This document shows positions 1-60,244 of a DNA stretch of 64,000 bases, piece by piece. The stretch is taken from assembly GCA_964517065.1 (NCBI GenBank), contig CAZFBK010000001.1, positions 41,734 to 105,733 on the forward strand, in the 5' to 3' direction. A model generated the notes under the pieces. It did no database searches, had not been told where the DNA came from, and worked only from the letters and a program-made list of their open reading frames with translations. How positions within the stretch are numbered: the first letter of the stretch is position 1; the number at the start of each line of letters is the position of its first letter. The translations under genes were made by a program, and so were the position numbers. The DNA comes from an uncultured Gammaproteobacteria bacterium. GTDB taxonomy: Bacteria; Patescibacteriota; Patescibacteriia; UBA1558; 2-01-FULL-52-15.

Positions 1-187
1 TCATACTAAGCCAGCCCAGACCGATAGGATTGGGATATCTGACCGTATCGCTGCTGACAATGGCATTCCAAGACCATTTACGAATATTATCATCACTACC
101 GCCCCAGGCCAGTCTGCCCACAGCTAATAATCCTAGTCCAACGACGAGGCCTGAAATAATAACGATGGTAAATCTAAAATGTTTCAT
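1..187 (-). CDS. Partial (C-terminus off window) hypothetical secreted/membrane protein. N-terminus MKHFRFTIVIISGLVVGLGLLAVG. Fourth member or neighbour of the tandem secreted-protein array.
   Basis: Reverse-strand ATG at 185-187 overlapping the stop of the upstream gene (TGATG). Hydrophobic signal-like N-terminus. ORF continues to the window edge. Confidence 0.4.
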   Translation of the reverse strand, partial: MKHFRFTIVIISGLVVGLGLLAVGRLAWGGSDDNIRKWSWNAIVSSDTVRYPNPIGLGWLSM

Positions 188-1707
188 CAGCATCCTCCTC
201 CATTATTGCGGCAGGCAGTAATTATATTTTGCAAATCAGTACTGTTCAAGCGCGTACCGCCGATCGTGATACCAGTAGCGCTGACCGTAATCTCACCATC
301 AATCTGAACGCCGGTAATACTGTTTAATGTGATATTGCCACCAATACGCAAATCATTACCGATCTGCAGTTCATTATTGATTGTAGCAGTACTGAGTAAC
401 AATGTCCCCAAATAACCACCCGTAGCACGCGTCAGACCCGTTACCTGAAGCTGATAGTCAGGAGCTGTCACGCCGATACCGACATTAGTCCGAGCTGCAT
501 CCGAGACATTGCTGGCCTGATAGTAGACGGTTTGTCCGTTGAGAAGCCATTGACTGACTACGGGCACACCGGCCTGAGTCTGCCAGCCGCAATTATCTTT
601 ATCTTTGTCACAGAGCAATCGATCACCCCAGTAAAGAGAATCAGCCGATGGGATCATGCCAGCTGAAGTCGTAGCGGACTGTAAACTGTTGTGACGCAGA
701 CCAACTCCTGCGATCGGACCGAAATTGATATATTGATCAGTTGCTGTCTGGTTTTTCATACTATTGAAACGACCATGAATTTCTACCGGTGTGCCATTGG
801 CTGAGGCGGCCAAAATACCTGGGCCAGTACCACCATGCAGACCATAGATACCCGACCAGAGACTATTGGCTGACTTGGCTTCACCATAGAGCGCCACCGG
901 CGTACCGATATGACTACCGCCGCCGTTAGAAACAATCACCGCTGGAGCCTGACCGGTCTGAGTGGCAGCCGGTGTGCTGGTGCTGTAGCTGGCCACGACA
1001 TTGATAATTCTGTTGCCATTCATATTCAAATTCATACCAGCAGTATGCGGCTTGATGAGACCCAAATTATCCGCCACGAAAGAGCCAGTCAACGCAAAAC
1101 CACAATTTGGCAGCGTATTATCGCATAGAAGCGATGAGCCATAATACAGTGATCTAGTAGCAGCTTGGCTGGCAGCAGTTGTGCCCAGTACATTACCCTG
1201 TGTCGCTAGAGCATTCTGACCAAGTTGCAATTGCGGATTCTGCGTACCTTGTCCCTCAAGTACCAGCGTGTCATAGAGCTGGGCGCTGATCGCACCGGTG
1301 CTATTGGTCACGAGACCGTAGCCGTTCGTACCGCCCGTACCACGGTTAAAAGCTCCAACAGTAGCTCTACCAGAGCCAACGTCAGTAGAGCTCTCAGCAT
1401 ACAAACCAAGCTGAGTACTATCTATATCTAGACCAAGTCCTGCTCCTGTGGCTGCAGCGCTTAAGCTTGGGCTGGTACCGCCGGACTTAGTGCCGATACC
1501 CATGATCGGCCAACCATTCATATTGAGATTAAACTGCGCCTGATGATTACCAAGATTATCTCCGGCCAAGGTAGTAATATTCGGAATCTGACTTTTCGGC
1601 GGGGCGAAGCTCGGATCGGTCCAGGTCTGAGCACTGATCCATTGAGCCAAGCCAAAACAAGCTATGAGACTGAGCGTGCTGATGATGGGGAAACGATAGC
1701 TTGTCAT
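187..1707 (-). CDS. Secreted repeat protein, paralog 1. Signal peptide. Repeated LYWG-x2-LLCD-x4-NCGW and DNLGNHxAxFNLNMNGxxI modules.
   Basis: 506-aa ORF. N-terminal signal peptide MTSYRFPIISTLSLIACFGLAQWISAQ. The two motifs occur twice within the protein and again in the two downstream paralogs. Confidence 0.7.
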   Translation of the reverse strand: MTSYRFPIISTLSLIACFGLAQWISAQTWTDPSFAPPKSQIPNITTLAGDNLGNHQAQFNLNMNGWPIMGIGTKSGGTSPSLSAAATGAGLGLDIDSTQLGLYAESSTDVGSGRATVGAFNRGTGGTNGYGLVTNSTGAISAQLYDTLVLEGQGTQNPQLQLGQNALATQGNVLGTTAASQAATRSLYYGSSLLCDNTLPNCGFALTGSFVADNLGLIKPHTAGMNLNMNGNRIINVVASYSTSTPAATQTGQAPAVIVSNGGGSHIGTPVALYGEAKSANSLWSGIYGLHGGTGPGILAASANGTPVEIHGRFNSMKNQTATDQYINFGPIAGVGLRHNSLQSATTSAGMIPSADSLYWGDRLLCDKDKDNCGWQTQAGVPVVSQWLLNGQTVYYQASNVSDAARTNVGIGVTAPDYQLQVTGLTRATGGYLGTLLLSTATINNELQIGNDLRIGGNITLNSITGVQIDGEITVSATGITIGGTRLNSTDLQNIITACRNNGGGC

Positions 1708-1708
1708 A

Positions 1709-4138
1709 TTAACTGTTGGACCAAGTGATTAATGTTTGCAATAGGCCTCTATCTAACTTCACACCTCCAATATTGATGATGCCAACGCCGGAATTCAGAG
1801 TACCTACGGTCAAAGTAACATCGCCGCGAACGGAAAGACCGCTACGAAGATATATATTGCCGTTATTAGTCATGTCACTAGAAACAACCACTGAGTCCGT
1901 TAGGGCATATCCAAGATTTAAATTTTGAAATGATGCCGCAGAAGATAAAGGACCAAAAACAAAGAGATCGTCGTTACCGTTACCACTAGCATCATCATTA
2001 TATGCATATCCATACGGTCCTCTAATTGCTAAACTATAAAGTCCATAATTACCGAAATCCTTACCCACGACCAAAGCCATATTTGCCGGATTATTAATGT
2101 CAATAATATCTAGGTCATGGAATGTCCCATTTCCAGTATTTCCTGAGGCTGTCGCATGTGTGATATAAGCATACCGACCAACCAAATAGATACTGGAAAT
2201 ATGGGTCCCCGAGAGTAACTCGGTCACATCGACAGAGTCGAGCTGAGTTGGACTTGAAGGATTTGAGGCATCCCAAGACTGTATCTTGGCGGAACTTGGG
2301 CTAAATATACTACAACCGATAAACAAAATGTTGCCACGAACAGCTATTGTATCGGTTGCTAAACCACCACATTTATTGGATTTCGACATTAGAAGCGGCA
2401 AAGCGGGGTTACTCAAACTCACAATACCATCAAGTGAGTACAAATAGTCTCCTTCGATTACCATATCAGCCGTATTTATCGTTGTGATGGACTCATCAAC
2501 TAAGACAGGTACTGCTGGATTTGTAATATTTACAACTGAAAGCTTCGATCCTCCGATATACGCATATTGCCCTTTAACAATAACTCTAATAGTCCGGCTA
2601 TTATTTACTAAATTGAATGATGTTACAATAGTAGAATTTTGAATATCTACAATGATAAGTGACGTATCAGACCCGAAGCCACTAGTGCCATGCGCAATAT
2701 AAGCGTAAGAACCGACTACATCAATGGAGGCTGTATCTGTATCAAAAGTTGCTGGGCTCAAATTGATTGATCTTACAAACGAGGGCACTCGCGGATTAGC
2801 AAGATTATATATATTAATACCTTCTTTTGTTAGAACATACAGCACTCCATCTTCGATATCTGTCATATCACTACCAAATGAATATTGTCCGCCTCCATCA
2901 CCGCCAGCTACACCTAATGAGATGTTCTGTGTCGATAAATTAAAGTCAAAAGGACTTAAAACTTCTAACTTTGCTTGCTGACCAATACCGCCAATACTCG
3001 TAATCCTGTCGTTAAATAGATTACCGCCGATCAGAGTCCAGAGACTTGGCGTACCGGCAACGGCGCTCCAGCCACAATTTGATTTACTGCTATCGCACAA
3101 CAGCTTATCACCCCAATAGAGATTCTGATCTGCTGCTGAGATCGGCGTCAGAGCCAAACTAGCATTGTGAACCGGTTTACCGAACGTCAATTGAGGTAAA
3201 GTTGTACTAGCTGCTTCTGTCAGGAGCTTCATCCGGCCATAGAGCGAGATACCAGGTCCAAAGATCGACTGACCAGTGACACCATAGCCTGTCCCGCTGT
3301 TGTAGCCCGAGGCAGCCACGGCCGGAGCAGCGATAGTATTGATCGCCACGATGCCGTTGACATTTTGCGAGACAGCGCTCAAGCCAGGACCAAAGTTGGA
3401 AGCACCGATACCGACATGAGTGAGCTGCAGGCTGCTGGTCGCCAGGACAGTCCCTATTTTATTTTGCAGGTTGATCAAGCTATGCTGCATCATGTTGAGG
3501 TTGAACTGAGCAGTATGATTACCGAGATTATCACCGAGTGAAGCTTTGACCCGACCACAATCAGCCTGACCCATATCGCACAATGGCATCATGCCCCAAT
3601 ACAAGCTACCGGCAGCAGCCGATCCAGCGCTAGCGGTACTGAGATAGTTGGTACTACCGGTGCCCCATTGGACTCGAGCCGGTATACCGATACTGCTGGT
3701 CGCCAATTGTAGCGCTTGGCCAAATTGCGCTGCCCATCCTCGCGTAGAACTTGCCATCAGCGCGTAGCCAGTACCAAGATTGCGCGCGAGGACAGCAGGC
3801 TGATCATTGGCCTGAGATTGTACTTCGGTACCGAAATTATTACTAGCGGTGATCAACGCGGCGATTGTTGAGTTGGAGGAAGTGGCTGTCAGAGCCCGAT
3901 CCGTACCATGATTATTCACGCCATAGAGACGATGACCTGTCAGATTCAAATCCATCCTGGCCTGATGATCACCCAGACCATCGTAGCCGCCAGCACTCAA
4001 GACATCGATGTCGCCGTTATTCGGTGGCGTAGCTGTCGGATTGATCCAAGTCGTAGCCATAGTCAAACCAATACCGCCAAACACGGTCAGGATACTGCTG
4101 ATGATATATGTTAATGCTTTGACGTGTTTCATGGACAA
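1709..4138 (-). CDS. Secreted repeat protein, paralog 2, with the same Cys-motif modules plus LVIVD-type beta-propeller repeats in the C-terminal half.
   Basis: 809-aa ORF. Signal/TM N-terminus. Motifs LYWGMMPLCDMGQADCG, LYWGDKLLCDSSKSNCGW, DNLGNHTAQFNLNM. C-terminal repeats of the form YAYIA..G..IVDI.N (LVIVD-like). Confidence 0.7.
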   Translation of the reverse strand: MSMKHVKALTYIISSILTVFGGIGLTMATTWINPTATPPNNGDIDVLSAGGYDGLGDHQARMDLNLTGHRLYGVNNHGTDRALTATSSNSTIAALITASNNFGTEVQSQANDQPAVLARNLGTGYALMASSTRGWAAQFGQALQLATSSIGIPARVQWGTGSTNYLSTASAGSAAAGSLYWGMMPLCDMGQADCGRVKASLGDNLGNHTAQFNLNMMQHSLINLQNKIGTVLATSSLQLTHVGIGASNFGPGLSAVSQNVNGIVAINTIAAPAVAASGYNSGTGYGVTGQSIFGPGISLYGRMKLLTEAASTTLPQLTFGKPVHNASLALTPISAADQNLYWGDKLLCDSSKSNCGWSAVAGTPSLWTLIGGNLFNDRITSIGGIGQQAKLEVLSPFDFNLSTQNISLGVAGGDGGGQYSFGSDMTDIEDGVLYVLTKEGINIYNLANPRVPSFVRSINLSPATFDTDTASIDVVGSYAYIAHGTSGFGSDTSLIIVDIQNSTIVTSFNLVNNSRTIRVIVKGQYAYIGGSKLSVVNITNPAVPVLVDESITTINTADMVIEGDYLYSLDGIVSLSNPALPLLMSKSNKCGGLATDTIAVRGNILFIGCSIFSPSSAKIQSWDASNPSSPTQLDSVDVTELLSGTHISSIYLVGRYAYITHATASGNTGNGTFHDLDIIDINNPANMALVVGKDFGNYGLYSLAIRGPYGYAYNDDASGNGNDDLFVFGPLSSAASFQNLNLGYALTDSVVVSSDMTNNGNIYLRSGLSVRGDVTLTVGTLNSGVGIINIGGVKLDRGLLQTLITWSNS

Positions 4139-6597
4139 GGGTTAGTGGCTACTGAACGGCACTTAGTGAAAATTTTATCAAGCGCAGTTTTGTCCAGCGC
4201 CAAATCCTGTAGTTGCAATCCGCTGGCGTTCAGATCCACGCTCCCCATCACCGTCAGTCCACGGACACCGACGCCGATTGATTTGGCGGTGACATTGCCG
4301 GCGATATCCATATTACCAAGCACTGACAGTGTGTCGAAGGTACCGTTAGTAGCAACAGCGGAGCTCACTTGGAGACCTTGATTGTTACGTATTGATAATT
4401 GATTATTAGTGCGATCGGCCAGATAGAGCCAGCGACCAGCTATAGCTAATTTGCCGGCATCTCCAGCATCATAGGGATTAATCGTATTATTGATTCTATA
4501 CATACCAGTATTTGCAGGATCATTAATATTAAAAATCTGCAGCCCATCAGACAAAACATAAGCATAGTCATCTATCACCTGCAGGCCGTATGCCGGCGTA
4601 TTAAAATCATCAGAGAATCTTCCTGCAGCAACTCCGTCACTTAGATTAAATACATACAAACTATCTCCCGCTCCATAGATATATGAACCTCGAATCACAA
4701 CCGATGATAGCGTCGACGGAGTTGAGAGACGAGGAGCTGGACTCGGCTGACTCGGGTCAAGCAGATCAGACAGCCTGTAAACTTTCAGACCAAATAATGT
4801 ATCAGCGATCGCCACGTCATTACCCAAGATTGACAAACCTCGTGGCTGATCCAGATTAGCACTCGAGTTCATGGTTTTCTTAACGACAGGAGCGCTTGGT
4901 TTAGTAATATCGATGACCTGTAGACCTCCTCCACCAACAGTCAGATCATACAACAAAATAGCGTAGTGTCCGACAACCTGCACATCGGTAGCATAGAGAC
5001 TAGCACTGACGCCGGCCAAGGCTGCAGATGAACCGACTGGTGTCGGAAGACTAGGATTATAAATATCCACGACCCGCAGACCTATAGTTGTAGCTAGGTA
5101 AGCATAACGACCACTCACGGTCAGTCCCCAAGTCGGACTTGGTATTGCAACTCGACCAATCGAAACCGGCGCACCAGCGACACTGATATTATAAATTTGC
5201 AAACTATTACTGGTAGCCACATAGGCTGTGCTATCACGGACAACCACCGCATTCACGGTGCCACTTGTCGGAGTGATATCACTCAGATTATAGCGGCTAC
5301 TCGGCTCACCAGAGACATAGCTATGGCCGATATCAAGCTTGGTAGCGACACTCGTATCTGCTGCGCGTCCTATCAGCACACCTTTCGTACTATCCACACC
5401 ACTCGGATCAGCTGGATAATGAATACCCTTGGGATTATCTTCCCATTTCCCAGGCGTACCTGACCCTTGAGCCCAGCCACAGTTCACTTTACTAGCGTCA
5501 CACAGCAAAGCATTACCCCAATACAAATTTGACGTTGGGTTACCAGCCAGAGCCGAGACGTTAAGATTATTTTTGCTGTCAGGTCCGAACTGAATCTGAG
5601 CTTTGACGCTGGTAGTACCGTTATAATTCATAATCTCCAGAGGACCATAGGACCGTCCACCGTTGCCCAGCGTTGATGCTCCCAGCAAGGCCAGACCAGT
5701 TTTGGTACTGGTAGCATAGAGACCGGCGTGAGCAGATGTCCCGGCTGTTGATTGGGTGAAAATACCATGCTGATCAGCAGAAATAGCACTAATGGTGGTA
5801 CTAGCTAGTGTACCAGTGGCGATAATTGCAGCATCAGCGCCATTTAGTGAATTAGATCCGATATTAAAAATAGTTTTACCACTCATATTCAGCGTCTGTG
5901 TAGCGATATGATTACCCAGACCATCACCCGCAGCTCCCGCCAAAATCCAACCACAATTCGGCAAAGTCACATCACACAGGAGATTGCTACCCCAATACAG
6001 ATTATTTTCAGCGTTATTTGTTTGAGCGTTGGCTGACAGTAGATTATTGAGATTATTACCAAAAATTAAACCTGAGCTGACGTTGGTCAACCCAAATAAT
6101 TGGGCACTCAGGTGGGAGGCTGAGTCAGCGATCAGACTAGGATACCCCTGACCGTTACCCGTATGCAGTCCACTATATGCCGAATTATTAGACAGCGTGA
6201 CACTTTTCAAAGCAAAAAAATCTGTGGCCCCCAGAGAAACCCCCATCTTATCACTACTGACCTGGAGTGCGGGATCTGCCCCCGAATCTCCAATGCCATA
6301 GATGCGATATCCGGGATTCGTATCAGGGCTCAATCGCAAAAGTTTCCCCGCTTCATGAGGATTGTTCAAACCAAGGTTATCACCACTGCCTGATTGAATA
6401 GTCTGGACGGTGGTGTTGTCCGGCGGTGGACTGGGAGACATAATCCAGGTTTGCGCGCTGACAACTACCCAGCTACCGACGATAGTGATACTGACAGAAA
6501 AAACAATGAGTGCGATAAATCCAGCACCAGATTCACTGGAAGTCTGACGTTGAAAAAAAACTTTGCAAATAGCTTGAATCTTTTTAATTATAGACAT
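4129..6597 (-). CDS. Secreted repeat protein, paralog 3, with Cys-motif modules plus LVIVD-type beta-propeller repeats.
   Basis: 822-aa ORF. Motifs LYWGSNLLCDVTLPNCGW, LYWGNALLCDASKVNCGW, GDGLGNHIATQTLNM. Repeats YAYLAT..GLRVVDIYNPSLP, LQVIDITKPSAP, YAYVLSDGLQIFNINDP. 10-bp overlap with the upstream gene. Confidence 0.7.
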   Translation of the reverse strand: MSIIKKIQAICKVFFQRQTSSESGAGFIALIVFSVSITIVGSWVVVSAQTWIMSPSPPPDNTTVQTIQSGSGDNLGLNNPHEAGKLLRLSPDTNPGYRIYGIGDSGADPALQVSSDKMGVSLGATDFFALKSVTLSNNSAYSGLHTGNGQGYPSLIADSASHLSAQLFGLTNVSSGLIFGNNLNNLLSANAQTNNAENNLYWGSNLLCDVTLPNCGWILAGAAGDGLGNHIATQTLNMSGKTIFNIGSNSLNGADAAIIATGTLASTTISAISADQHGIFTQSTAGTSAHAGLYATSTKTGLALLGASTLGNGGRSYGPLEIMNYNGTTSVKAQIQFGPDSKNNLNVSALAGNPTSNLYWGNALLCDASKVNCGWAQGSGTPGKWEDNPKGIHYPADPSGVDSTKGVLIGRAADTSVATKLDIGHSYVSGEPSSRYNLSDITPTSGTVNAVVVRDSTAYVATSNSLQIYNISVAGAPVSIGRVAIPSPTWGLTVSGRYAYLATTIGLRVVDIYNPSLPTPVGSSAALAGVSASLYATDVQVVGHYAILLYDLTVGGGGLQVIDITKPSAPVVKKTMNSSANLDQPRGLSILGNDVAIADTLFGLKVYRLSDLLDPSQPSPAPRLSTPSTLSSVVIRGSYIYGAGDSLYVFNLSDGVAAGRFSDDFNTPAYGLQVIDDYAYVLSDGLQIFNINDPANTGMYRINNTINPYDAGDAGKLAIAGRWLYLADRTNNQLSIRNNQGLQVSSAVATNGTFDTLSVLGNMDIAGNVTAKSIGVGVRGLTVMGSVDLNASGLQLQDLALDKTALDKIFTKCRSVATNPCP

Positions 6598-6716
6598 AGC
6601 TTACGTGTGAAACTGGTGCTGGATAAAACGTCGCAGAGATAAAAATCAAATAAAATATACTTCTATATTTTACCATAAAATTGACTGAATAACCAAGTAT
6701 CAACTATAATGAACTC

Positions 6717-12958: not shown

Positions 12959-13993
12959 TTAATTATAACTCCATGACGCTCCTTGAGAATTGGTATTGAT
13001 AGCTCTACATTTATCTATTTGACCATGGATATGTCCTATTTTCCCATATCTCGTAGGGCCGTTATAATTATTATCTATATCTTTGCCCGTGGCGCAATCT
13101 AATTTATCATTACAACGCGATCCTGACCCAAAGCAGGTTTCCTCACACTGCACGTAGGTAAAACCACTTTCGGTCATTTTGAGCTCTAGCTGATGATAAT
13201 TAATACCAACCGCAGCCGGTATGGCTAAATCAACCGCACATGACTTAGGAGGATGATCTTTATTAAAAGCCCATAGATTATTAGGTCCTCCATAGTGATA
13301 CTCTCCTCCATGACTGCAACCAGATTTGACACCTCCATTTTTTAACCTGTTACAATTTCCTGTGTAGATTCGGTCGTCCGTCACAGAATTCAACACAACT
13401 GACCACAACTTTGGTACAGTATAATCAAGCCGTGAAAAAGCATTTAATAAATCTGGATGCATATCTTGAAGCTGTTTCGGATTAACACCTGTCTTGTTAA
13501 TACCAGATATGTTGCTTTCTAATGGTTGTACGACCGTATCAATCGGTAAAATGATAGGTTGTACCTGAGTGATATTCAAATCCTGCAACTCCACCAGCTT
13601 ACTATTGATCTGAGCAAACAACAGATATGAAGTCAAAGCTAATATCAGACCAAAGATAGCAGCCGAAATAGTAGACTTAGCTTCAGAAATCTTGCTGCTG
13701 TTACCGGCTGCTAGGAGCCATTGGAAACCACCAAACATGATCATGACCACAGCCAATACGATCGCCCCTTGGACGAAGAAACTATAAAGCGCAGCGATAT
13801 AACAACCGAGGAAGCTGCCGTCCATCTTAGCCGTGCAATGCAGGGCATTGAGATAGGGATCAAGCCCGATCGAGGAGTTGAACTGAACCTTTTCAACTGT
13901 GGGCGGCTGATTATTAACAAACTGATTAAGACCGTTGTACCAAGGATCGGCAGCGTGGGCTACCGCGATAAATTTATAAAATAATGCGTTCAT
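12959..13993 (-). CDS. Secreted/membrane protein. Signal peptide plus a two-TM hairpin reminiscent of VirB2/TrbC pilins, followed by a Cys-rich C-terminal domain with a possible peptidase-like SHGG...AVDLA motif.
   Basis: Signal peptide cleavage site AHA/AD. Two long hydrophobic helices separated by a short loop. About 200-aa Cys-rich C-terminal domain. The assignment is topology-based only. Confidence 0.35.
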   Translation of the reverse strand: MNALFYKFIAVAHAADPWYNGLNQFVNNQPPTVEKVQFNSSIGLDPYLNALHCTAKMDGSFLGCYIAALYSFFVQGAIVLAVVMIMFGGFQWLLAAGNSSKISEAKSTISAAIFGLILALTSYLLFAQINSKLVELQDLNITQVQPIILPIDTVVQPLESNISGINKTGVNPKQLQDMHPDLLNAFSRLDYTVPKLWSVVLNSVTDDRIYTGNCNRLKNGGVKSGCSHGGEYHYGGPNNLWAFNKDHPPKSCAVDLAIPAAVGINYHQLELKMTESGFTYVQCEETCFGSGSRCNDKLDCATGKDIDNNYNGPTRYGKIGHIHGQIDKCRAINTNSQGASWSYN

Positions 13994-14622
13994 AGTATGA
14001 ATGATGAGTCAATTATTTGGCGCCATTGTGACAGTGAGATGTCTTCAGCCACTCGGATCGTACCATTCAGCTCGAAATATGGGATCGAGGGTATCCCAGC
14101 AGTAGTAGCATCAGCGATATCCTGCTCTATCAGCGACAGCGTCGCACGGTCATTGAGACAACGGGAAAATAGTGCTCGATCTAAGTGTAAATCATCTGCA
14201 ATAGATATCCAAATACTAGCGTCGTCTGTCAAACGAGTTTGTCGTGCAAAAAGCTCATCATGATACTGCCAAAACTTTCCTTGCAGCTGGGCGCACCGTG
14301 CAGCCAGAGCTGCTGTCCGAGCATTATCAGTATCAAGTGGCAAATCCTTGCGTACTATTCTGACTTTATCGCCATAGATCGCCCGTAGTTGGTCCAAGGT
14401 CAAAGCGGACGTACGGCAGGCAGGACAGGTGAAACTACTAAAATACACCAAGGTCGTCTTGGCTGTGACGGGACCAACTGCAGGATCTTCAGCTCGCAAC
14501 GGCACCGCAATAAAAGCCTGACCAACGCTGCCAGGTATTATTCTGTTTCTGACCGTAATATAATAAAACACGATACCGCTCAGTATCAGTAATGCTAACA
14601 AGCTAAAGCCAAATAATTTCAT
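13990..14622 (-). CDS. DsbA-like thiol-disulfide oxidoreductase (thioredoxin fold, membrane anchored)
   Basis: N-terminal TM. CxxC active site FTCPACRTS. 4-bp overlap with the downstream gene. Confidence 0.7.
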   Translation of the reverse strand: MKLFGFSLLALLILSGIVFYYITVRNRIIPGSVGQAFIAVPLRAEDPAVGPVTAKTTLVYFSSFTCPACRTSALTLDQLRAIYGDKVRIVRKDLPLDTDNARTAALAARCAQLQGKFWQYHDELFARQTRLTDDASIWISIADDLHLDRALFSRCLNDRATLSLIEQDIADATTAGIPSIPYFELNGTIRVAEDISLSQWRQIIDSSFIL

Positions 14623-14629
14623 CGTTAAT

Positions 14630-15886
14630 TTATTTCAAACGAATACTATGCAGGGTACCCGTGGCACGGTCGACGAAATACAGTATCGACTGATCGGGTG
14701 ACAGTGAGACTGACTGAGCAGTATAGCTCTGCTGACTGCCAACCGGCAAAGCTAATGGTACTTTGTTGCCGGAGATCAGATCGATACGATAGAAGACATC
14801 AGGTGTAGTATTCGCCAGATCAGGGTAGAGACCAGAACCCTGCGACAGCTCGATCGGCACAGCACAATAGATCGAGCTCTCCGTCTGATCGAAGGCACAC
14901 TTATCTGGCCACGTATTCAGCTGCAAATCAGTCTGACTATAGCCTATATCTCCTGTCCTGCCCTCTGTCAGCCACAGTCGCGGCTGATAGCCATCTGAAG
15001 CACTAGCAGTACTATAGAGGAGATATGATCCTCCCGGAGACCAGGAGCCGGTGAATTTCAAACCGTCGACATTGAAGGACTGGAACTGCTCTTGATTGCG
15101 TCCGATCGGCACCACCTCTTGCCCATCAGTACCTGTGGCTTTGCGATAGAGTGCTACTACTTGATTGTCCGGTGAGACATTGACCGCGACATTGAGCTCA
15201 CGATCTCCGACTGGCTCGACTATCTTGATATCACTCCCGTCTGCCGAGCCTGCCATCAGCCAGGTCGTATCAGGTTTACCGCCATTCCAGATAGCCGCGA
15301 ATGACCGGCCATTAGAATCCAGCGAAAACTTCTCCAGCTCCTTCGGCAGACTGACCTGTTTACCTTTATTGAAATCATACAGAATATTTGATCCGTCAGG
15401 ATATTCCAAAATTGCCACACTCTTATTGGCGGCCCAGGTAACGTCTGAGACATTATAAAATTTCTCCGTCCCCAATGTCGTCACGGTACCGTCAGATGTC
15501 AACGTCTGAAAGACAGATAAATCAGGATTATAATAGGTCAAACCATTGGTAGTCGGCACAGCAAACTCCACTTTGGTAGTTCCATAATCAGTGACTGCTG
15601 TCTGGCCACCTTGAGCCACCTCGTCGATACCGGTCGTACCGCCAAACTGAGGTAAGCCACCATTGCTATTCGGAACATTTACCACTGGAATATTTCCTTG
15701 ATTAATATTGGGCAGTTGACCAGTGCCGGTATTAGTATTTTGATTGCCTGATTTTGGCACCAGACTGCCAAATATGATCGTAATCAAGGCCCAGGCTAGT
15801 AAGAGTACCACTACGACGAATCCTATAATTAAAAATAGACGTTTTCTTTCCATATTATTGTGAACAAGAATAAATTTGACAACCAA
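14630..15886 (-). CDS. Secreted TolB-like / WD40-like (PD40) beta-propeller protein
   Basis: N-terminal TM. Repeated SPD(G/N)..(V/L)(A/L)(Y/F) blades (SPDNQVVALYR, SPGGSYLLYS, SPDQSILYFV). Confidence 0.5.
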   Translation of the reverse strand: MVVKFILVHNNMERKRLFLIIGFVVVVLLLAWALITIIFGSLVPKSGNQNTNTGTGQLPNINQGNIPVVNVPNSNGGLPQFGGTTGIDEVAQGGQTAVTDYGTTKVEFAVPTTNGLTYYNPDLSVFQTLTSDGTVTTLGTEKFYNVSDVTWAANKSVAILEYPDGSNILYDFNKGKQVSLPKELEKFSLDSNGRSFAAIWNGGKPDTTWLMAGSADGSDIKIVEPVGDRELNVAVNVSPDNQVVALYRKATGTDGQEVVPIGRNQEQFQSFNVDGLKFTGSWSPGGSYLLYSTASASDGYQPRLWLTEGRTGDIGYSQTDLQLNTWPDKCAFDQTESSIYCAVPIELSQGSGLYPDLANTTPDVFYRIDLISGNKVPLALPVGSQQSYTAQSVSLSPDQSILYFVDRATGTLHSIRLK

Positions 15887-16373
15887 GATCTTTCAGCCAA
15901 GAAAAAACTACCTCCAGTCCTAGGCGTAGCAACATACCGGGCTGCAGGAAGACCATTAAGGTGACACTAATGATAAAGACGATAAGCAACAATCCATGAG
16001 TACCAAACATCACCCAACGCTCTATCTTGCTAACTTTCTGCCAAACACCGGGCCACTCGAATCCCATGATATTAGCCGTCAGATAACGCAAGGTGGTCTC
16101 CAGCACGTACCAGATAAAAGTCAACGGATTCAAGGCTGTGACGAGACGAAAAAGACGGATAGTTGAATCTGTTTCTTGACGCAGCGCCTGAATGCTGCCA
16201 CCCTGTTGATCTTCTTGCTGTTCTACTGCCTGCTTGGTTTCCATCCGATCCTGCAACCGTTGCTGTTCGAATTGTTGCTGATACCGTTCCTCACGTTCCG
16301 CCGTATCATCAGCGAGTCCCAAGCTGGGCATTTGTAATACCTGTGCCATATTATTGCCATTCTGCTCGGTCAA
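15855..16373 (-). CDS. Hypothetical Gln-rich protein with C-terminal TM segments
   Basis: 172-aa ORF in the operon with the VirB4-like gene. No recognisable domain. Confidence 0.4.
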   Translation of the reverse strand: MTEQNGNNMAQVLQMPSLGLADDTAEREERYQQQFEQQRLQDRMETKQAVEQQEDQQGGSIQALRQETDSTIRLFRLVTALNPLTFIWYVLETTLRYLTANIMGFEWPGVWQKVSKIERWVMFGTHGLLLIVFIISVTLMVFLQPGMLLRLGLEVVFSWLKDLGCQIYSCSQ

Positions 16374-16956
16374 CCAACCAATGGTCGCCCGATTTTACTA
16401 ATGAAACTATAATATCTTGATAGTACTCGTTGATTTTTAAATCTGCTTTGCGTTCACTGCGCTGCGTCTTGACTGTCAGACGTGCTTCCGAAGCTGTTTG
16501 TGACACCAGCTTAATGCTAATGACGTGAGTTTCGATACCGGTATAAGCCTGAGCTGTATCTTGGCGCTTAGAAAAATCAAAACGACCTTGAAATGCTGGT
16601 GTGACCATAGACCAGACATCGCGGATATTTTGCTGGTTACTTTGGTTGGAGAAGCTGCCATAGCGTTCGACGAAGGTCCGCGTCACCACCGACAGCTCAG
16701 CACCAGCCGGTGCAGTGATCGGTAGCACTTGATTGACGTTTGTATTAGCAGCATTATCTGGTGTCACTGATTGAGGTTGTAATACTACCGGCGCTAATGT
16801 TCGTTGAGACAAAAACCACCAAAACCAAATCCCCAGACCAATGAGAACGACAACGACACCAATACTCAGCCACACTTTCGGTCGTGAAAAAATATTAGCC
16901 AGCGGCATTGATTTGGGCGTTAGTTTTCTCAGCGAAGTCGCGTTTGGCCTGTTCAA
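16351..16956 (-). CDS. Hypothetical membrane-anchored protein (N-terminal TM)
   Basis: 201-aa ORF. TM segment VVVLIGLGIWFWWFL. Overlaps the upstream gene, so the true start may be the internal Met near 16908. Confidence 0.45.
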   Translation of the reverse strand: MNRPNATSLRKLTPKSMPLANIFSRPKVWLSIGVVVVLIGLGIWFWWFLSQRTLAPVVLQPQSVTPDNAANTNVNQVLPITAPAGAELSVVTRTFVERYGSFSNQSNQQNIRDVWSMVTPAFQGRFDFSKRQDTAQAYTGIETHVISIKLVSQTASEARLTVKTQRSERKADLKINEYYQDIIVSLVKSGDHWLVDRAEWQ

Positions 16957-18790
16957 TCTCGAGGAGCTGTTTTGGATCTGAGGTGATCAGCTGATCCTCG
17001 GTATACGAAGCCATTATTTTGATGGCAGCATGCTTGGCACCGGCGAAAAATATTCCCTCTCCCACGGCACTCTCCAGCAGTAGATATTTCTCTCCTTCGG
17101 TTAATAAGAAAGTCTTTTGAATATTATTAATAGCTGCCGGTGATTGCTTCAATAGCATTTGCATGGACGAATTGGTAACGATCGCCTGTCCGTAGGGCGA
17201 CAGTAAGAAGTCATTAACATCCTGAGTAATAGTCGTGATACCAAGGTAATATTTACGACAACGTTTGACTAAGGCGTAGATGAACTTGGCACTATCTTCG
17301 TGTTGCATCAGCCACCAGGCTTCGTCGATTATCAGTAGACGCTTCTTGACGGAAGAGCGAACAATATTCCAGATATAGTTAATAACTGTGTAAATGGCGA
17401 TTGGTCGCAGCTCATCTTCCAGATCTCGGACACTGAAGACCACCAATTGATTATCCGTATTTACATTCGTCGGATTATTAAACAAACCAGCAAAGGTACC
17501 TTGAGTATACTTTTTGATGCGCAGCGCAATATCTTCGCCGCCCACCATACCCATCAGCACTTCTTCGAAATCAGACATCAGCGGCATGCTGGCTCGCGTC
17601 CAATCTGAGCTAGCATTGATATCTTTCTTGGCATAGGTTTCGAGCAAGGCCCGATCAACGATGGAGTCCTCCTCATTGGTCAGATCACCGACCATCAGAC
17701 GGATCAGTCCTTTCAGAGTAATGACAGCGCTGCGAAGAATATCTTCCGGCCGGGCGTCTCCTACCTTACGGGGCAAATCAAAAGGATTTAATTTACTTTC
17801 AGAATTCAATGAGAGGTTAATGTAGGCACCACCGACCGAATCAGATAAATGCAAATATTCTTTCTCCGGGTCGATAATAATAATCTCCATACCCAACATC
17901 ATACTACGCAGGACTTCTAGTTTCACCGCGTAGCTTTTGCCGGCACCTGAGGTAGCGAAAACCACTGAATTAGCATTCTGCAGACTGAAACGATCAAAAA
18001 TAATTAAACTATTATTGTGACGGTTAATGCCGTACATGATACCGTTATCAGAAGTTAATTCTGAGGATACAAACGGGAACGAAGCTGCCGCTGGCGAGCT
18101 ACTCATATTAGCAGCGACAAAGAGCTCGTCGTTGCCTAATGGCAATGTCGAGTTGAAACCCTGTTCAGATTGATAAAAAGCCCGACGTGACATCACCAGA
18201 TGAGCGCCGAGCAGATTTTCAATTTTGTCTGAAGCAGAGTCCAGCTGTTCTTTGTTCTCAGCGTAGACCGTGATATAGAGGGCATATTGGAAAAACCGCT
18301 CAGTACCCTGACTGAGACTGTCGCGCAAACTTTCGATATCGCCCAAAGCAGTTTCTTGTACTGGATCACGCGGAGCACCCTTCTCTCTGTCCGAAATAAT
18401 CTGTGATTCGATGACACCGACTTTTTTCTTCAACTGCTTCAAGACTGCGGTGCTGTCAATCGGATAAAAAAACATAGCAATATCCAACGGTAAGCTATAG
18501 TTGATGATCGGGGCAAACCAGCTGATCGTGACGTAGCGCGGATAGGCAATGACAAAAATAGTCCGAGCATAGAGCGGTCCCAGCTGGACATAGCTGACGT
18601 CGACTTTGAACGATGAAGGCGCGATCAGATCACGGATACTGACGACACCTTCGCGGAAAACCTTCTCCGCTTCCAGGACAGTAATATCTTCTTCAGTTCG
18701 TTCTCTCAGCTGTTGCTCTTGCTGCGCCAAACCAACGCGCTGCTCGTCATCGTTGGGGAAATTACTAGTAACTTGTTGGGGTTTAAACAT
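16895..18790 (-). CDS. VirB4/TraC-like type IV secretion ATPase
   Basis: Walker A FATSGAGKSYAVK. Walker B LLIIDEAWW. About 630 aa. The N-terminal portion may be encoded by the adjacent upstream 248-aa ORF. Confidence 0.7.
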   Translation of the reverse strand: MFKPQQVTSNFPNDDEQRVGLAQQEQQLRERTEEDITVLEAEKVFREGVVSIRDLIAPSSFKVDVSYVQLGPLYARTIFVIAYPRYVTISWFAPIINYSLPLDIAMFFYPIDSTAVLKQLKKKVGVIESQIISDREKGAPRDPVQETALGDIESLRDSLSQGTERFFQYALYITVYAENKEQLDSASDKIENLLGAHLVMSRRAFYQSEQGFNSTLPLGNDELFVAANMSSSPAAASFPFVSSELTSDNGIMYGINRHNNSLIIFDRFSLQNANSVVFATSGAGKSYAVKLEVLRSMMLGMEIIIIDPEKEYLHLSDSVGGAYINLSLNSESKLNPFDLPRKVGDARPEDILRSAVITLKGLIRLMVGDLTNEEDSIVDRALLETYAKKDINASSDWTRASMPLMSDFEEVLMGMVGGEDIALRIKKYTQGTFAGLFNNPTNVNTDNQLVVFSVRDLEDELRPIAIYTVINYIWNIVRSSVKKRLLIIDEAWWLMQHEDSAKFIYALVKRCRKYYLGITTITQDVNDFLLSPYGQAIVTNSSMQMLLKQSPAAINNIQKTFLLTEGEKYLLLESAVGEGIFFAGAKHAAIKIMASYTEDQLITSDPKQLLEIEQAKRDFAEKTNAQINAAG

Positions 18791-18791
18791 A

Positions 18792-19538
18792 TTAGTCTAC
18801 CGCTAAATTATTGATATCTTCCAAAGGCTGACTCTGATACATCGTAGGGTTGTAGCTGTTATAATACAGCTCAATCAGGGCTTGAGTATTCAACCGTTGT
18901 ACCTGCAAACCCATGCTGGTCAGGCCTGAAGAAATAAAAATTGAACGTTTGGTTAATTCGCGAGAATATTTTTCAAATTTTTCCTTACCAACGATAACCT
19001 TACGGGCAGCGGTGAAAACATCAAGTAAACGGTCAGAATATTTACGTTTCTGATCATTGATCGGATTATAGTTAACTACAACATAAAAACGCTTACTCAT
19101 GATACTTTCCAGCTCCAGCAGTTCCGAGACAAAATTACGATAATCGGCAGTCTGCATTCTCAGGAGCTCATTGGTGTGCTCTCGCTCGGTCTTCTTCAGA
19201 CGTTCCAGATAGTCGTCAATATTGAGCGGACGTGATTGAATAACAATTTGTAAAGGAAATGACAAGGAATTCAAGAAAGTGACATAAGCCCCGACCATAG
19301 AAGCTTGCTCGTCTTCTGACTTCAGATCGAAGTTGATAGACGAGACGATCAAAACTGCTCGTAACGTACCGTCACGCATCAAGGCTACGTCTTCTTTGAT
19401 CTCGGCAATATCCAAATACTTCTGCGCCGACGGCAGGTGATGTTTCGGCTTCTGGTGCTCTGGTTTATTTTTGGCCATAGACAGCGTTATGAATAAAATT
19501 TGCTTCTTGCTCGCCTTTATAAATACCACCGGTATCAA
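18792..19538 (-). CDS. Hypothetical protein immediately upstream of and abutting the VirB4-like gene. Possibly a split VirB4 N-terminal domain.
   Basis: Stop at 18792 lies two bases from the VirB4-like start at 18790. Combined length of about 880 aa equals a canonical VirB4. No motif of its own was recognised. Confidence 0.4.
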   Translation of the reverse strand: MIPVVFIKASKKQILFITLSMAKNKPEHQKPKHHLPSAQKYLDIAEIKEDVALMRDGTLRAVLIVSSINFDLKSEDEQASMVGAYVTFLNSLSFPLQIVIQSRPLNIDDYLERLKKTEREHTNELLRMQTADYRNFVSELLELESIMSKRFYVVVNYNPINDQKRKYSDRLLDVFTAARKVIVGKEKFEKYSRELTKRSIFISSGLTSMGLQVQRLNTQALIELYYNSYNPTMYQSQPLEDINNLAVD

Positions 19539-19923
19539 CGATCAGAGCCAACTCTGATAGTTTAGAAGCTGTCAGATGTTGTTTTGGGATGAAAATCTCT
19601 TCCTGATGTTTATTCTCGTCTTTCGCTTTGACCTCTAATAACAGCTCCTTTTGCCAGACTCTGAGCTCCGGCTTACGCAGACGTGAGATATAGTTCAAAG
19701 CAAAAATATGAAAGGGCGCACCGTTAATTTTCAGAAAGGCCACTGTACCACCGACTAACAAAAGAAAGCTGCCTTGAAACAAAAATAAATTGAATGGCGA
19801 TAAACGATAGGACAAGAAAACTAATAGTCCAGTGATGATAACGATGACGAATTGTCGAGTGGTAATAGCCCCAATAATTTTGTCTTCGATATCAATGAAT
19901 TGTGGCACGATAAACTTGCGCAT
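19465..19923 (-). CDS. Small two-TM membrane protein, VirB3/PrgI-like by position and topology
   Basis: 152-aa ORF with two adjacent hydrophobic helices (FVIVIITGLLVFLSY ... LLLVGGTVAFL), located just upstream of the VirB4-like region. Confidence 0.35.
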   Translation of the reverse strand: MRKFIVPQFIDIEDKIIGAITTRQFVIVIITGLLVFLSYRLSPFNLFLFQGSFLLLVGGTVAFLKINGAPFHIFALNYISRLRKPELRVWQKELLLEVKAKDENKHQEEIFIPKQHLTASKLSELALIVDTGGIYKGEQEANFIHNAVYGQK

Positions 19924-19926
19924 AGT

Positions 19927-21165
19927 TTAAAATCTCAGATGCTTATTGAGATCAGTAATAGCTTCAAACTCATCGACTGTGAGAGCCTCCTGCCCGCCTG
20001 TCTGTAGAGCAGTAATTGCCTGATTGATATCCATATTTTGTTCTAGACTCTGATGACCGATAGCGAGATACATCTGATAGACTTCATTCTTCCTCCAGCC
20101 ATCGATACCTTGAGCCCGTCGCAACAGTGACTCTTTGCCTAAGTTAACAATACGTTGAAGAATTTTTGCCACCCGCATACGAGGATCAGGGTCTAAAGCG
20201 CGGAAATCTTGCAAGGACATAGTAGAGAGTTCATCAACCTTGCCTAGAATACGATTATTCGGACGTTTCACCTTGGGCAGTTGATCGACCATGGCGCTGA
20301 CATCGGTCATTGGTCGACTGACCTTCGGTAGGTCGCCAGCGGAACGGATCATCGGCTCTGCTAATGCACCTGACGGAGTGACCTCCGGCACCACACTGAC
20401 AGGCTTCTCGGGCTGCGCTGGCACTGAGGGTTCTACTGGTTGAACGGGGCCTACCTCGCGCTTTGCCGAGGATAGCTCGTCAGACATTGGTTGGAAATCA
20501 CCCTTTACTGATAACGGTTTGGATAAAATGTCCGCAATTGGTTTCGGCGTTGACTCTGTCTCAGGTGCACTCATGCCTCGTTCTCCTCCTGCTTCCACCA
20601 CTACACCATCGACACTCTCTATCTTCTCTTTCAAACTTCGAGCTATCAGCATGACCTTATCAGCAATAGCAGGATCAAGGCCAAAACCGACAACACCAGT
20701 ATCAGCTAATAAACCTCTCATCTGAACGAAGCTACGCGCCTGACGAAAGAATGACAGCAAAGATTTGACGAAACGGGCGTACTGCTCCGGTGAGAACTTT
20801 AGTTCGTTTTTTTCTACCAGTTTCTCAGCAATTTTTTCTACGCTATATTTTTTGCGCTCATTGGCAGACAGATAGGAGTTGATTTTCTCCAGCTCAGAAG
20901 CTATATCCTGCTGATCGTCTGGATGAAAATGAAAATCAGCTTTTGAGCCTGGATCTGGAGCAACTTGTGGCGCTGGTACGAAATGCTCATCAGTCGGAAC
21001 CACAGCTGGAAGAGCAGCCGCTGGTAACGGATTTACTGATGTCGTGATTTGGGCACTGATATCGCCAGAACTAGACGACAAAGTACCATCCTGAAACGGC
21101 TTAAACTGGCCGTTACTATCTTTAATCAAAATATTATTATCAAGTTCGGTTTGTGATAAGGCCAT
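19927..21165 (-). CDS. Hypothetical Pro-rich low-complexity protein
   Basis: 412-aa ORF. PxxP-rich segments (PVEPSVPAQPEKPVSVVPEVTP). First gene of the minus-strand cluster. Confidence 0.45.
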   Translation of the reverse strand: MALSQTELDNNILIKDSNGQFKPFQDGTLSSSSGDISAQITTSVNPLPAAALPAVVPTDEHFVPAPQVAPDPGSKADFHFHPDDQQDIASELEKINSYLSANERKKYSVEKIAEKLVEKNELKFSPEQYARFVKSLLSFFRQARSFVQMRGLLADTGVVGFGLDPAIADKVMLIARSLKEKIESVDGVVVEAGGERGMSAPETESTPKPIADILSKPLSVKGDFQPMSDELSSAKREVGPVQPVEPSVPAQPEKPVSVVPEVTPSGALAEPMIRSAGDLPKVSRPMTDVSAMVDQLPKVKRPNNRILGKVDELSTMSLQDFRALDPDPRMRVAKILQRIVNLGKESLLRRAQGIDGWRKNEVYQMYLAIGHQSLEQNMDINQAITALQTGGQEALTVDEFEAITDLNKHLRF

Positions 21166-27279: not shown

Positions 27280-27714
27280 CTATTTCTCTTGCGGTAGCGT
27301 ACCACCAAGAGATTGTAATAAGATTTCGACCCCACCGATCCATTCCCGAAGCGGCCAGAGACGCAGATATACCAAATCAAGCATTAATTGTTCGAGATCT
27401 ACCCCTGGCAAATCTAGTGTTGCTATAGCTTCCTTAAAATCACTAGCCGGTAACTCTTTAGTAATCACAGCAATAATAATCTGCAATATCTGCTGTAATT
27501 GAGCGCTTGTCAACCTATGAATTACTGCAATGTTATGATTTATATCAGACGTACGTTGCTGAAAAACCACTGATTGAATCTCCTCCGGTAATGTCTGCAG
27601 TGTATAAGATATTCTAGATTCTTTCATGTTATTATGTAGCTTTCGTAGGTCTAACCTGGGGTTTCTTTGGAAGTTTCGGCGGTGTCTTGCCACCAGCATG
27701 GAAAACCGAAGCAC
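27280..27714 (-). CDS. Hypothetical protein, short paralog of the 420-aa protein
   Basis: LQTLPEEIQSVVFQQRTSDINHNIAVIHRLTSAQLQQILQIIIAVITKE. Same domain as the neighbour. Confidence 0.5.
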   Translation of the reverse strand: MLRFSMLVARHRRNFQRNPRLDLRKLHNNMKESRISYTLQTLPEEIQSVVFQQRTSDINHNIAVIHRLTSAQLQQILQIIIAVITKELPASDFKEAIATLDLPGVDLEQLMLDLVYLRLWPLREWIGGVEILLQSLGGTLPQEK

Positions 27715-39318: not shown

Positions 39319-39321
39319 AAC

Positions 39322-40110
39322 CTACTGTAAACTCTTAATTAAATCTTTCAGATCACTCGGAGGCAAGCGGTTCACTTCACTTTCTTTCAGACCTGCTTGT
39401 ACCAGAAATGTCCGCATGTCAGCCTCACTCAAACTATCGACATCAATAGGCTCTGACTGTAGATCAGCTGCTCGCACGATAGCGTCCATATAGACCAAAA
39501 GCGTATCATCGCTCAAATCATCCAAGGTCGCCTGATCCATACCGCTCTGGAGTAAAATACCGCGGAACTCTTTCAACGTTGCGTCTTTCAGACTTTGATT
39601 GGCGGGGCTGAATTCGGGTAATAAATCCGATAGTTTAGTATCAGGATTGATGAGACGAATCGTACGACAAGTCTCTCCGGTCTTACAGTTAGGATCTGTG
39701 CCTTTTTTGATCTCTGAGCCATCGGGAATACCGTCGCCATCAGTGTCTTTGAGATACGGACTGGTGTTATAGGTATAGACTTCATCATAATCACTTAAGC
39801 TATCGCCGTCAGTGTCCTTCTGCTTCAAAGCATCGGTGATCGCTGGATCAGTGGAGCTGGCCGTGGCGGCGATTTGCTTGATGTCAACTTTGAAAGGGCT
39901 AGTAATACCGTTGGTAATCAGCCAGCCTGCCAGTACCAGTGAGCTGAATCCGCAAAGACTGATCAGGAAAATAATAATTTTGGTGCCTCGATCCATCGGA
40001 GCGCGTCCTCTGATCTGAAGATATGAAGAACCACCTTCCTCAGTCTGGGGTGTGACTTCCTCAGGAATTAATTCTGCCTCTACTTGATTTGTTGGCGACA
40101 TGGAAACCAA
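39322..40110 (-). CDS. Membrane-anchored calcium-binding protein with thrombospondin type-3-like repeats (DxDxDGxxDxxE)
   Basis: TM segment IIFLISLCGFSSLVLAGWLI. DTDGDSLSDYDEV and DTDGDGIPDGSEI repeats. First gene of the operon, 4 bp upstream of the giant gene. Confidence 0.6.
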   Translation of the reverse strand: MVSMSPTNQVEAELIPEEVTPQTEEGGSSYLQIRGRAPMDRGTKIIIFLISLCGFSSLVLAGWLITNGITSPFKVDIKQIAATASSTDPAITDALKQKDTDGDSLSDYDEVYTYNTSPYLKDTDGDGIPDGSEIKKGTDPNCKTGETCRTIRLINPDTKLSDLLPEFSPANQSLKDATLKEFRGILLQSGMDQATLDDLSDDTLLVYMDAIVRAADLQSEPIDVDSLSEADMRTFLVQAGLKESEVNRLPPSDLKDLIKSLQ

Positions 40111-57529: not shown

Positions 57530-57533
57530 ACCT

Positions 57534-58622: not shown

Positions 58623-58626
58623 ATCT

Positions 58627-60234: not shown

Positions 60235-60244
60235 TTCAAAAGAC

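Follow-up and report, generated by a model that had tools for sequence, protein, structure and literature searches.

Three paralogous secreted proteins encoded ahead of type IV pilus genes: candidate host adhesins of a Komeilibacteria-like bacterium

INTRODUCTION

What is the function of three paralogous secreted proteins whose genes precede a type IV pilus (T4P) gene cluster in a bacterium of the candidate phyla radiation (CPR)? The genes in question, A, B and C, together with the 5' end of a fourth gene, D, occupy the first 6597 positions of a 64,000-nucleotide (nt) stretch of contig CAZFBK010000001.1, which was analysed as a whole and is referred to here as the window. CPR bacteria (Patescibacteria) are obligate epibionts, and their host-recognition molecules are largely unknown beyond a few cultivated Saccharibacteria. 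In Saccharibacteria, T4P and one propeller-bearing protein, PilX2, have been implicated in host binding (PMC11623550).

An initial annotation of the window described A, B and C as a tandem array of diversified secreted proteins that combine Cys-pair modules, fibre-like motifs and LVIVD propeller repeats. The position of the array at the head of a pilus operon was missed, and in that respect the significance of the locus was underestimated. We propose, at about an even chance, that A, B and C are pilus-associated, tail-fibre-like host adhesins of a Komeilibacteria-like CPR bacterium and that, together with D, they make up the extracellular accessory set of its T4P.

RESULTS

Architecture of A, B and C

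The genes and their subregions are as follows.

Gene A: 4129..6597, minus strand; 822 amino acids (aa); signal, AQTW..P..PP box, two modules, propeller, and a tail ending in a Cys pair.
Gene A, predicted mature N-terminal region: 5422..6453, minus strand; aa 49-392, containing both modules (from motif positions and module alignment).
Gene A, LVIVD beta-propeller region: 4363..5280, minus strand; about aa 440-745 (PF08309).
Gene A, C-terminal tail: 4132..4335, minus strand; beta stretch plus amphipathic helix, ...LDKTALDKIFTKC....C; common to A, B and C.
Gene B: 1709..4132, minus strand; architecture as in A, with an LVIVD propeller.
Gene B, LVIVD beta-propeller region: 1964..2866, minus strand; PF08309 match in three stretches.
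Gene C: 187..1707, minus strand; 506 aa; minimal, propeller-free architecture with signal, AQTW box, two modules, NVGIG..P.YQLQV junction and Cys-pair tail.
Gene D, 5' end (about the first 64 codons): 1..193, minus strand; runs off the window at position 1; distinct family.

The three complete genes are tightly packed, as originally described. The start of B overlaps the stop of A as ATGA, the B/C junction reads TAAtATG, and C overlaps D by 1-7 nt. The open reading frame (ORF) of B was called as 1709-4138 from a TTG start at 4138; an alternative ATG at 4132, which yields 807 aa, is probably the true start, and the resulting product is identical to database protein P0001.

The three proteins are paralogs. 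Composition-adjusted BLASTP aligns B with A at an E-value of 5e-39, C with A at 1e-28 and C with B at 8e-28, and the motifs that they share are therefore not low-complexity artefacts. Each protein contains two tandem modules of ~150-170 aa. A module starts with the motif GD(N/G)LG(N/D)HxA..(N/D)LN(M/L).G..I.N, followed by a beta stretch rich in Gly, Ala, Ser and Thr, and closes with a Cys loop of the form LY(W/Y)G..LLCD....(N/D)CG(W/F/R). Exactly two D(N/G)LG..H..NLNM motifs and two Cys loops are found in each of A, B and C, in agreement with the repeats noted in the initial annotation. In A, module 1 has DNLG at aa 73 and its LYWG-Cys loop at aa 200-216, and module 2 has DGLGNH at aa 225 and its LYWG-Cys loop at aa 358-374. 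The domain order had been thought to differ among the paralogs; the four motifs are, in fact, almost in register (aa 50/187/213/358 in C, 53/179/203/340 in B and 73/200/225/358 in A), and the order is thus constant. The sole architectural difference is the propeller insert of A and B.

The LVIVD propellers expected in the two larger proteins are significant in a Pfam search (PF08309; A, 3e-13 and 49.3 bits; B, 2.9e-11 and 43 bits; gathering score, 20.2 bits), and LVIVD is absent from C in the same scan at E<=1. The propeller of A comprises about seven YAY...(V/I)(V/I)D(I) blade-like units when counted by eye; blade counting by regular expression gives an undercount. All three proteins share a C-terminal tail of ~60 aa, which aligns between aa 445-501 of C and aa 755-815 of A at 2e-5 and between C and B at 0.006. 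For the stalk of A, B and C, searches of Pfam, NCBIfam, PHROG and the PDB sequences gave no match, and protein C has no match in PDB sequence and profile searches. The A/B/C family profile matches the PDB propellers 5hrm and 5m11 via the LVIVD region only.

Export signals and the mature N-terminus

By inspection, the N-terminus of each protein consists of an n-region, a hydrophobic segment and a small-x-small junction (VSA/QTW, ISA/QTW and TMA/TTW, with the slash at the junction). A, B and C thus look like secreted proteins with a Sec-type signal, as had been suggested. The content of Gly, Ala, Ser and Thr (GAST) is 39-43% in A, B and C versus 25-28% in the cytoplasmic proteins PilB, PilM and ClpB; the GAST index has been applied to exposed pilins, for which a similar content was reported (PMC11623550).

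A box of the form (V/Y)-x-A-(Q/A)-(x)-W-x-(D/E)-P-x-x-x-P-(G/P) follows the signal-type hydrophobic segment directly (window positions 6450-6470, 4050-4060 and 1620-1630) and recurs in 45 of the 49 superfamily members with an intact N-terminus. Conservation of this kind at a signal-peptide junction is unusual. It suggests that the mature N-terminus is functional, and the box may serve as a docking or sorting signal. A prepilin signal is absent from A-D, in which neither a class III motif nor an N_methyl (PF07963) match was found. Pilins and minor pilins carry a class III signal (G/F-T-L-I-E, with the slash at the cleavage site) and then a long N-terminal helix. The assignment of A-D to them was rejected on the basis of the missing class III signal; in A, B and C, a Pro-rich box directly follows the hydrophobic segment.

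The Cys pairs of the loops had been annotated as probable disulfides. In an alignment of 22 family members, conservation is 90% or more in each of the four loop Cys columns, the window contains a DsbA-like gene and a related locus contains a DsbB gene, which together make disulfide formation plausible.

The array heads a T4P gene cluster

The window's contig was recovered as L001/L028, in which the array heads a T4P cluster that starts just past the window edge. The genes lie on one strand in the order A-B-C-D-pilM-pilN-like-pilO-like-x113-pilB (MshEN+T2SSE)-response regulator-pilT-pilC. The order is identical in seven other species-level genomes, with orf158-LemA-HtpX-ClpB upstream on the opposite strand. 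One of the seven is a Candidatus Komeilibacteria metagenome-assembled genome, in which all four proteins are annotated as 'hypothetical protein', the name carried by every superfamily member that was looked up. The two divergent units are separated by the following region.

A / orf158 divergent intergenic region: 6598..6716, no strand; AT-rich; oppositely oriented orf158-LemA-HtpX-ClpB on the other side.

This region is the probable promoter region of the A-D unit. A promoter scan found consensus promoter-like hexamers only, near background, and the divergent arrangement is kept in related genomes.

The same organization extends to distant loci. D homologs at 28-31% identity lead to L029 and L030, in each of which the operon starts with three secreted paralogs and D. 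In L029, genes for N_methyl prepilins and for a prepilin peptidase follow pilC, and the L030 operon reaches one N_methyl prepilin. A profile of the L029 trio aligns with the C-type profile (hhalign probability 93%, E 3e-7). The trio resembles A, B and C in its AQxW..P..PG box, its NPM.EDLNL.G..I motif, its Cys loop, which is shorter, and its IYY..GNVGIG..P...L.V junction.

A wider sample was obtained by scanning metagenome contigs with PilM only, which gave 80 loci at 43-91% identity. Among them are 51 CPR loci whose upstream sequence extends for 1.8 kb or more, and 44 of these 51 have a D-family ORF in front of pilM and on its strand, at a median distance of 120 nt. The adjacency persists in loci without the LemA/HtpX flank. 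Where the whole upstream flank is available, D is preceded by zero to three secreted ORFs, never more than three in the sample, and many of them match the A/B/C-superfamily profile. Superfamily ORFs upstream of pilM are always on the pilM strand and just before D, even in L096, whose flank holds no LemA-sized gene. Prepilin-motif ORFs all lie downstream of pilM (44/44), and none was found upstream of pilM in the window, the related loci or the metagenome loci.

Could A-D be cargo rather than pilus parts? A T4P-like machine that acts as the pseudopilus of a type II secretion system (T2SS) might push folded proteins through the wall or S-layer, after which A-D would be free or wall-bound adhesins. 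Sec signals, disulfides and genetic linkage to a machine are typical of T2SS substrates, and A-D have Sec-type signals, disulfide-type Cys pairs, DsbA/DsbB genes nearby and linkage to the machine; the N-terminal box could be their recognition signal. However, the operon contains PilT and true prepilins, as in a retractile type IVa pilus, no secretin or T2SS-specific component was seen, and three co-linear paralogs resemble assembly parts more than independent cargo. We consider a cargo role improbable.

Two further features of these loci were observed. The x113 ORF (L001 10751-11092) lies between pilO-like and pilB in every locus and encodes 111-120 aa with an N-terminal transmembrane segment and a C-terminal ..R.NPFLP(L/I) motif; it has no family match and may be a PilP-like machine component. 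The cassette genes upstream of D in L073 (5025-7478) and L074 (1432-3378) are single-copy, and long stretches of their products are made of ~14-residue GG..N.(I/V)..... repeats, which resemble a YadA head or beta-roll by eye and have no Pfam match.

D defines a separate conserved family

The partial fourth gene had been counted as a further member of the array. D has no BLASTP match to A, B or C better than E=3.4 and belongs to a separate, unannotated family. The full-length protein has 666 aa (L001 5367-7367), a Sec-type signal, 24 conserved Cys and three W.W...GLGW(L/V)x(F/N) motifs. Its C-terminus is conserved (...ADGRLQANPPAG...LPKFNFSF; family consensus LP(K/R)F.F.F), and the protein has no match in Pfam, NCBIfam or PDB. 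Its place directly before pilM in 44 of the 51 loci makes D a candidate T4P component, one that would be new and conserved in the monoderm-type cells of CPR bacteria.

An ancient triplication with exchangeable heads

A neighbour-joining tree of the N-terminal regions resolves clades A, B and C, each with one member per genome and the same species topology. Since the three orthologous clades mirror the species tree, the triplication is ancient and predates these species. Copy-number variation, which the initial annotation had in mind, is not seen; the genes are retained 1:1:1 and the copy number is unchanged in the seven related genomes, in all of which the gene C orthologs measure 483-524 aa.

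The proteins nevertheless diverge fast. Ortholog identity is 26-58% versus 70-92% for PilM and PilB, and the nonsynonymous substitution rate (dN) relative to a close relative, L003, is 0.34-0.57 versus 0.06-0.07 for PilM and PilB. The paralogs are only ~30% identical, and the synonymous rate (dS) is saturated even against L003 (2.2-2.8 for A, C and D; incalculable for B, PilM, PilN, PilO and PilB); dN/dS is therefore unobtainable and dN alone is comparable. PilN, PilO and x113, which are also extracytoplasmic, diverge at rates similar to those of the cassette proteins. Thus, the description of A, B and C as fast-evolving surface proteins holds for their rate of change and not for a recently diversified array. 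A recently duplicated, fast-diversifying antigen or adhesin array, or a prophage tail-fibre remnant, would account for the fast protein divergence and the tail-fibre-type motifs, but the recent array is contradicted by the three orthologous clades, the 1:1:1 retention and the constant copy number in seven genomes, which leaves such an origin highly improbable. A prophage remnant was rejected because no phage genes lie nearby and no PHROG family was matched.

The heads differ among lineages. LVIVD heads are essentially limited to the Komeilibacteria subclade. The single cassette protein of L107 ends in Peptidase_S74 (3e-11), the chaperone of trimeric tail fibres, and the lectin-like accessory domains Laminin_G_3 and DUF2341 occur in one A ortholog and in D orthologs. 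B-type orthologs reach ~1115-1150 aa in four genomes (L005 10001-13396, L010 6574-9954, L011 6478-9924 and L006 6625-9969). In three of these four, the Cys-loop motifs lie ~500 aa apart rather than ~160, which indicates an insert of ~330 aa between the two modules. Such accessory domains and inserts in some orthologs fit variable binding heads on a conserved stalk. By eye, the ~330-aa insert looks Kelch-like and may be a second propeller.

Head exchange also bears on whether A-D are structural extracytoplasmic parts of the pilus machine, for instance a conduit or collar that spans the wall or S-layer in a monoderm cell without a secretin. D stands almost universally directly before pilM, and the extracytoplasmic machine proteins PilN, PilO and x113 diverge at rates like those of A-D. 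A gene number of zero to three by lineage and heads swapped among LVIVD, S74 and LamG types are unexpected for core parts, however, and the idea suits D better than A, B and C. As an account of A-D, it appears quite improbable.

Relatives and the tail-fibre link

A word-indexed homolog search with the N-terminal alignment found nothing. An exhaustive profile search of 1.8 billion representatives recovered 258 proteins, 29 of them at E<=1e-30 and ~20 with the full architecture. The remaining proteins divide into two groups, each of which shows one of the two module elements. Proteins of the first group contain up to 16 copies of the GDNLGNH..L.M....I.N motif (~35-50 aa; profile matches up to 2.6e-61, summed over 16 repeats) and have no Cys loop. 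They match phage tail-fibre PHROG families (to 1e-52) and, weakly, the Phage_T7_tail end, and one has Peptidase_S74. The second group consists of giant proteins, some from CPR genomes, with 4-10 Cys-loop motifs and no DNLGNH motif.

The resemblance of the NLNM motif to fibre-like repeat proteins, suggested at the outset, thus stands at the motif level, from the profile to the repeat proteins and from these to the tail-fibre PHROG and S74 families. It does not extend to a direct family match. The tail-fibre link of A, B and C is transitive only, and family membership is not supported.

In L016 (8516-20409; Candidatus Dojkabacteria CP129477.1), a 1700-aa LYWG-Cys-loop protein adjoins a 2199-aa protein with a D-like region (E 7e-36), and no T4P genes were detected within the flanks. 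Because of this pair, A/B/C-type and D-type modules co-occur outside pilus operons as well.

Other regions of the window

The A/B/C family had been reported to reappear at 62546-63664. The minus-strand ORF at this site encodes a stand-alone LVIVD propeller of 372 aa (PF08309, 1.8e-31 and 107.6 bits) with an N-terminal hydrophobic anchor and a weak choice-of-anchor-B match. It contains no Cys and no DNLGNH or LYWG motif. Its similarity to A is confined to the LVIVD propeller (best local E 3e-8), and it is unrelated to the A/B/C stalk.

A minus-strand cluster at 12959-21165 encodes a Patescibacteria-type (monoderm conjugation-like) type IV secretion system (T4SS), with T4SS_pilin PF18895, a DsbA-like thioredoxin, a VirB4/TraG P-loop ATPase, PrgI and several ORFs without a Pfam match. 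On account of this monoderm-type cluster (PF18895, PrgI and VirB4) and its housekeeping genes, the window fits a Patescibacterium.

Two further regions encode large or repeated proteins. The region 27632-40110 (minus strand) is probably another surface-protein operon; its giant ORF of 3066 aa (30118-39318) has a single CBM_4_9 domain and lies between the ORF of a 262-aa protein with TSP3_bac repeats and an ORF of 828 aa that Pfam does not match. The region 56009-61369 (plus strand) looks like a second paralog array in the window, with four tandem ORFs of 506, 362, 535 and 390 aa. The first three carry PsbP_2-like domains; the fourth ORF and the secreted status of all four were judged from the translations only.

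DISCUSSION

Proposed function

A, B and C together define an unannotated superfamily that is genetically tied to the T4P operon in many CPR lineages and carries swappable heads of the LVIVD, Peptidase_S74 and LamG types. What would such proteins do at a pilus? In our proposal, A-D would be exported by Sec and oxidized by the DsbA/DsbB system. The stalk would consist of the two modules with the tail-fibre-type motifs GDNLGNHxA..NLNM.G..I.N and NVGIG..P...L.V, the distal head of A and B would be the LVIVD beta-propeller, and all three proteins would end in their common short C-terminal tail. Attachment to the pilus or to the pilus exit site might be mediated by D, by the N-terminal box or by both, in the manner of a tail fibre that is fixed by its N-terminus, which would make the N-terminus the proximal end. 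The propeller heads would then bind a structure on the host-cell surface, and pilus extension followed by PilT-driven retraction would pull the epibiont onto its host. Such a role would parallel those of PilY1/PilC in diderm bacteria and of PilX2 in Saccharibacteria. If A, B and C are indeed pilus-borne adhesins, the host range of uncultivated CPR bacteria could be predicted directly from their head domains.

A bolder version of this proposal is suggested by the motifs in register, the common tail and a gene count that never exceeds three. A, B and C might form a heterotrimeric tail-fibre-like stalk that, together with D, replaces the minor-pilin/PilY1 tip complex in a large CPR clade. The C-terminal tail could be the trimerization element and the AQxW..P..PG box the docking element, and lineages with a single cassette protein, such as that of L107 with S74, would use a homotrimer. 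We regard the heterotrimer as doubtful; if true, it would represent a phage receptor-binding-protein architecture on a retractile pilus for host capture.

Several observations weigh against the proposal that A, B and C are pilus-associated adhesins. The LemA-HtpX-ClpB flank is almost as syntenic in the clade as the pilus genes are, so that adjacency is weak evidence for A, B and C and stronger evidence for D. In the D-pilM spacer, 94 nt in the window's contig, a hairpin precedes a T run and promoter-like hexamers are present (both near background in the scans), and A-D may therefore be a separate transcript. L087, L093 and L098 carry D without an A/B/C-like gene, which indicates that the machine can do without A, B and C. 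With regard to the tail-fibre likeness, A, B and C match no PHROG family at E<=1 and neither Phage_T7_tail (PF03906) nor Peptidase_S74 (PF13884) in Pfam at E<=1. Phage tail fibres have a trimeric fibrous fold, a triple beta-helix or beta-roll; AlphaFold2 models were of low confidence (predicted local distance difference test scores of 40 and 52.5) and gave no fold match, so that the fibre-like stalk rests on motifs only. The C-terminal PilY1-type propeller (PF05567/IPR008707) likewise has no match at E<=1. The link of A, B and C to the pilus is purely genomic, and a physical or regulatory association is putative. Our confidence is held at an even chance by this purely genomic link, the syntenic opposite flank, the possible break between D and pilM and the failed structure prediction.

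Some of these observations favour a role independent of the pilus, as surface fibres or adhesins or in association with the envelope or S-layer; the genes would then neighbour the T4P genes through generally conserved gene order. The ClpB-HtpX-LemA-orf158 flank is syntenic in the same genomes, and conservation of the neighbourhood needs no shared function. The possible terminator and promoter between D and pilM are consistent with separate expression. In addition, LYWG-Cys-loop repeats occur in giant CPR proteins away from T4P genes (L016, L019 and L022), and LVIVD proteins are generic cell-surface proteins (PMC2447325). However, A, B and C share their strand and tight packing with D, D keeps its place directly before pilM even when the other flank changes, and A/B/C-like ORFs always precede D on the pilM strand, including in L096. 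A pilus-independent role is a possibility to be taken seriously, although we judge it unlikely.

Comparison with known systems

How does the proposed adhesin set compare with known systems? In the type IVa pili of Pseudomonas, Neisseria and Myxococcus, PilY1/PilC serves as the tip adhesin and as a priming factor. It is not a pilin but a Sec-exported propeller protein, which is mounted at the pilus tip via its C-terminus and confers adhesiveness on the pilus (10.64898/2026.09.18.752573; PMC7541494). The proteins described here are likewise large and encoded in a T4P cluster, A and B have a beta-propeller, and a type I (Sec) signal rather than a prepilin signal is predicted by inspection. The extreme C-terminus of PilY1/PilC is functionally important. 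PilY1/PilC has a Ca-binding loop and a C-terminal plug for docking onto a minor pilin; A, B and C have a conserved tail, and in D the extreme C-terminus is conserved. In contrast, the propeller here is of the LVIVD type (PF08309). The N-terminus of PilY1 is variable, whereas the N-terminal stalk is the conserved part of A, B and C. PilY1 is one protein with four minor pilins and its gene lies among the minor pilin genes, whereas three paralogs and D are found here, upstream of pilM and in a monoderm-type CPR organism. Membership of the PilY1 family fails on propeller type and gene neighbourhood.

PilX2 of TM7x (Nanosynbacter lyticus, T4P-2) has a seven-bladed beta-propeller, lacks a PilD-type signal and is rich in GAST residues; efficient binding to the host depends on it, and it was proposed to be the tip adhesin (PMC11623550). 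The cassette shares with PilX2 the T4P locus, the beta-propeller head and the non-PilD signal, which are functional and architectural criteria compared by description only. PilX2 differs in its pilin-like lollipop N-terminal helix and its RCC1-type propeller (PMC11623550), whereas in A and B a Pro-rich box directly follows the hydrophobic segment, the modules are of the tail-fibre type and the propeller is of the LVIVD type.

Phage tail fibres and surface proteins annotated with a 'tail fiber domain' include tail-fibre-like proteins that contain GDNLGNHxA..L.M....I.NL repeats and NVGIGT..P..KL.V and often end in Peptidase_S74. A, B and C resemble them in the DNLGNH..NLNM..I.N motif and, by eye, in the NVGIG..P...L.V junction, and the L107 cassette protein at the same genomic position has the Peptidase_S74 end. 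Unlike these proteins, A, B and C have the motif only twice, in each case together with a Cys loop, which is absent there, and they are chromosomal and encoded in a pilus operon rather than in a phage. Among LVIVD-repeat surface proteins (PF08309; Adindla et al. 2004, PMC2447325), A, B and the ORF at 62546-63664 score above the Pfam threshold. LVIVD is only the head of A and B, however; the N-terminal 390 aa and the tail belong to no described family, and C has no LVIVD. In the proposed role, A, B and C would be functional analogues of the non-pilin, propeller-bearing, pilus-associated adhesins while standing outside the PilY1 and pilin families.

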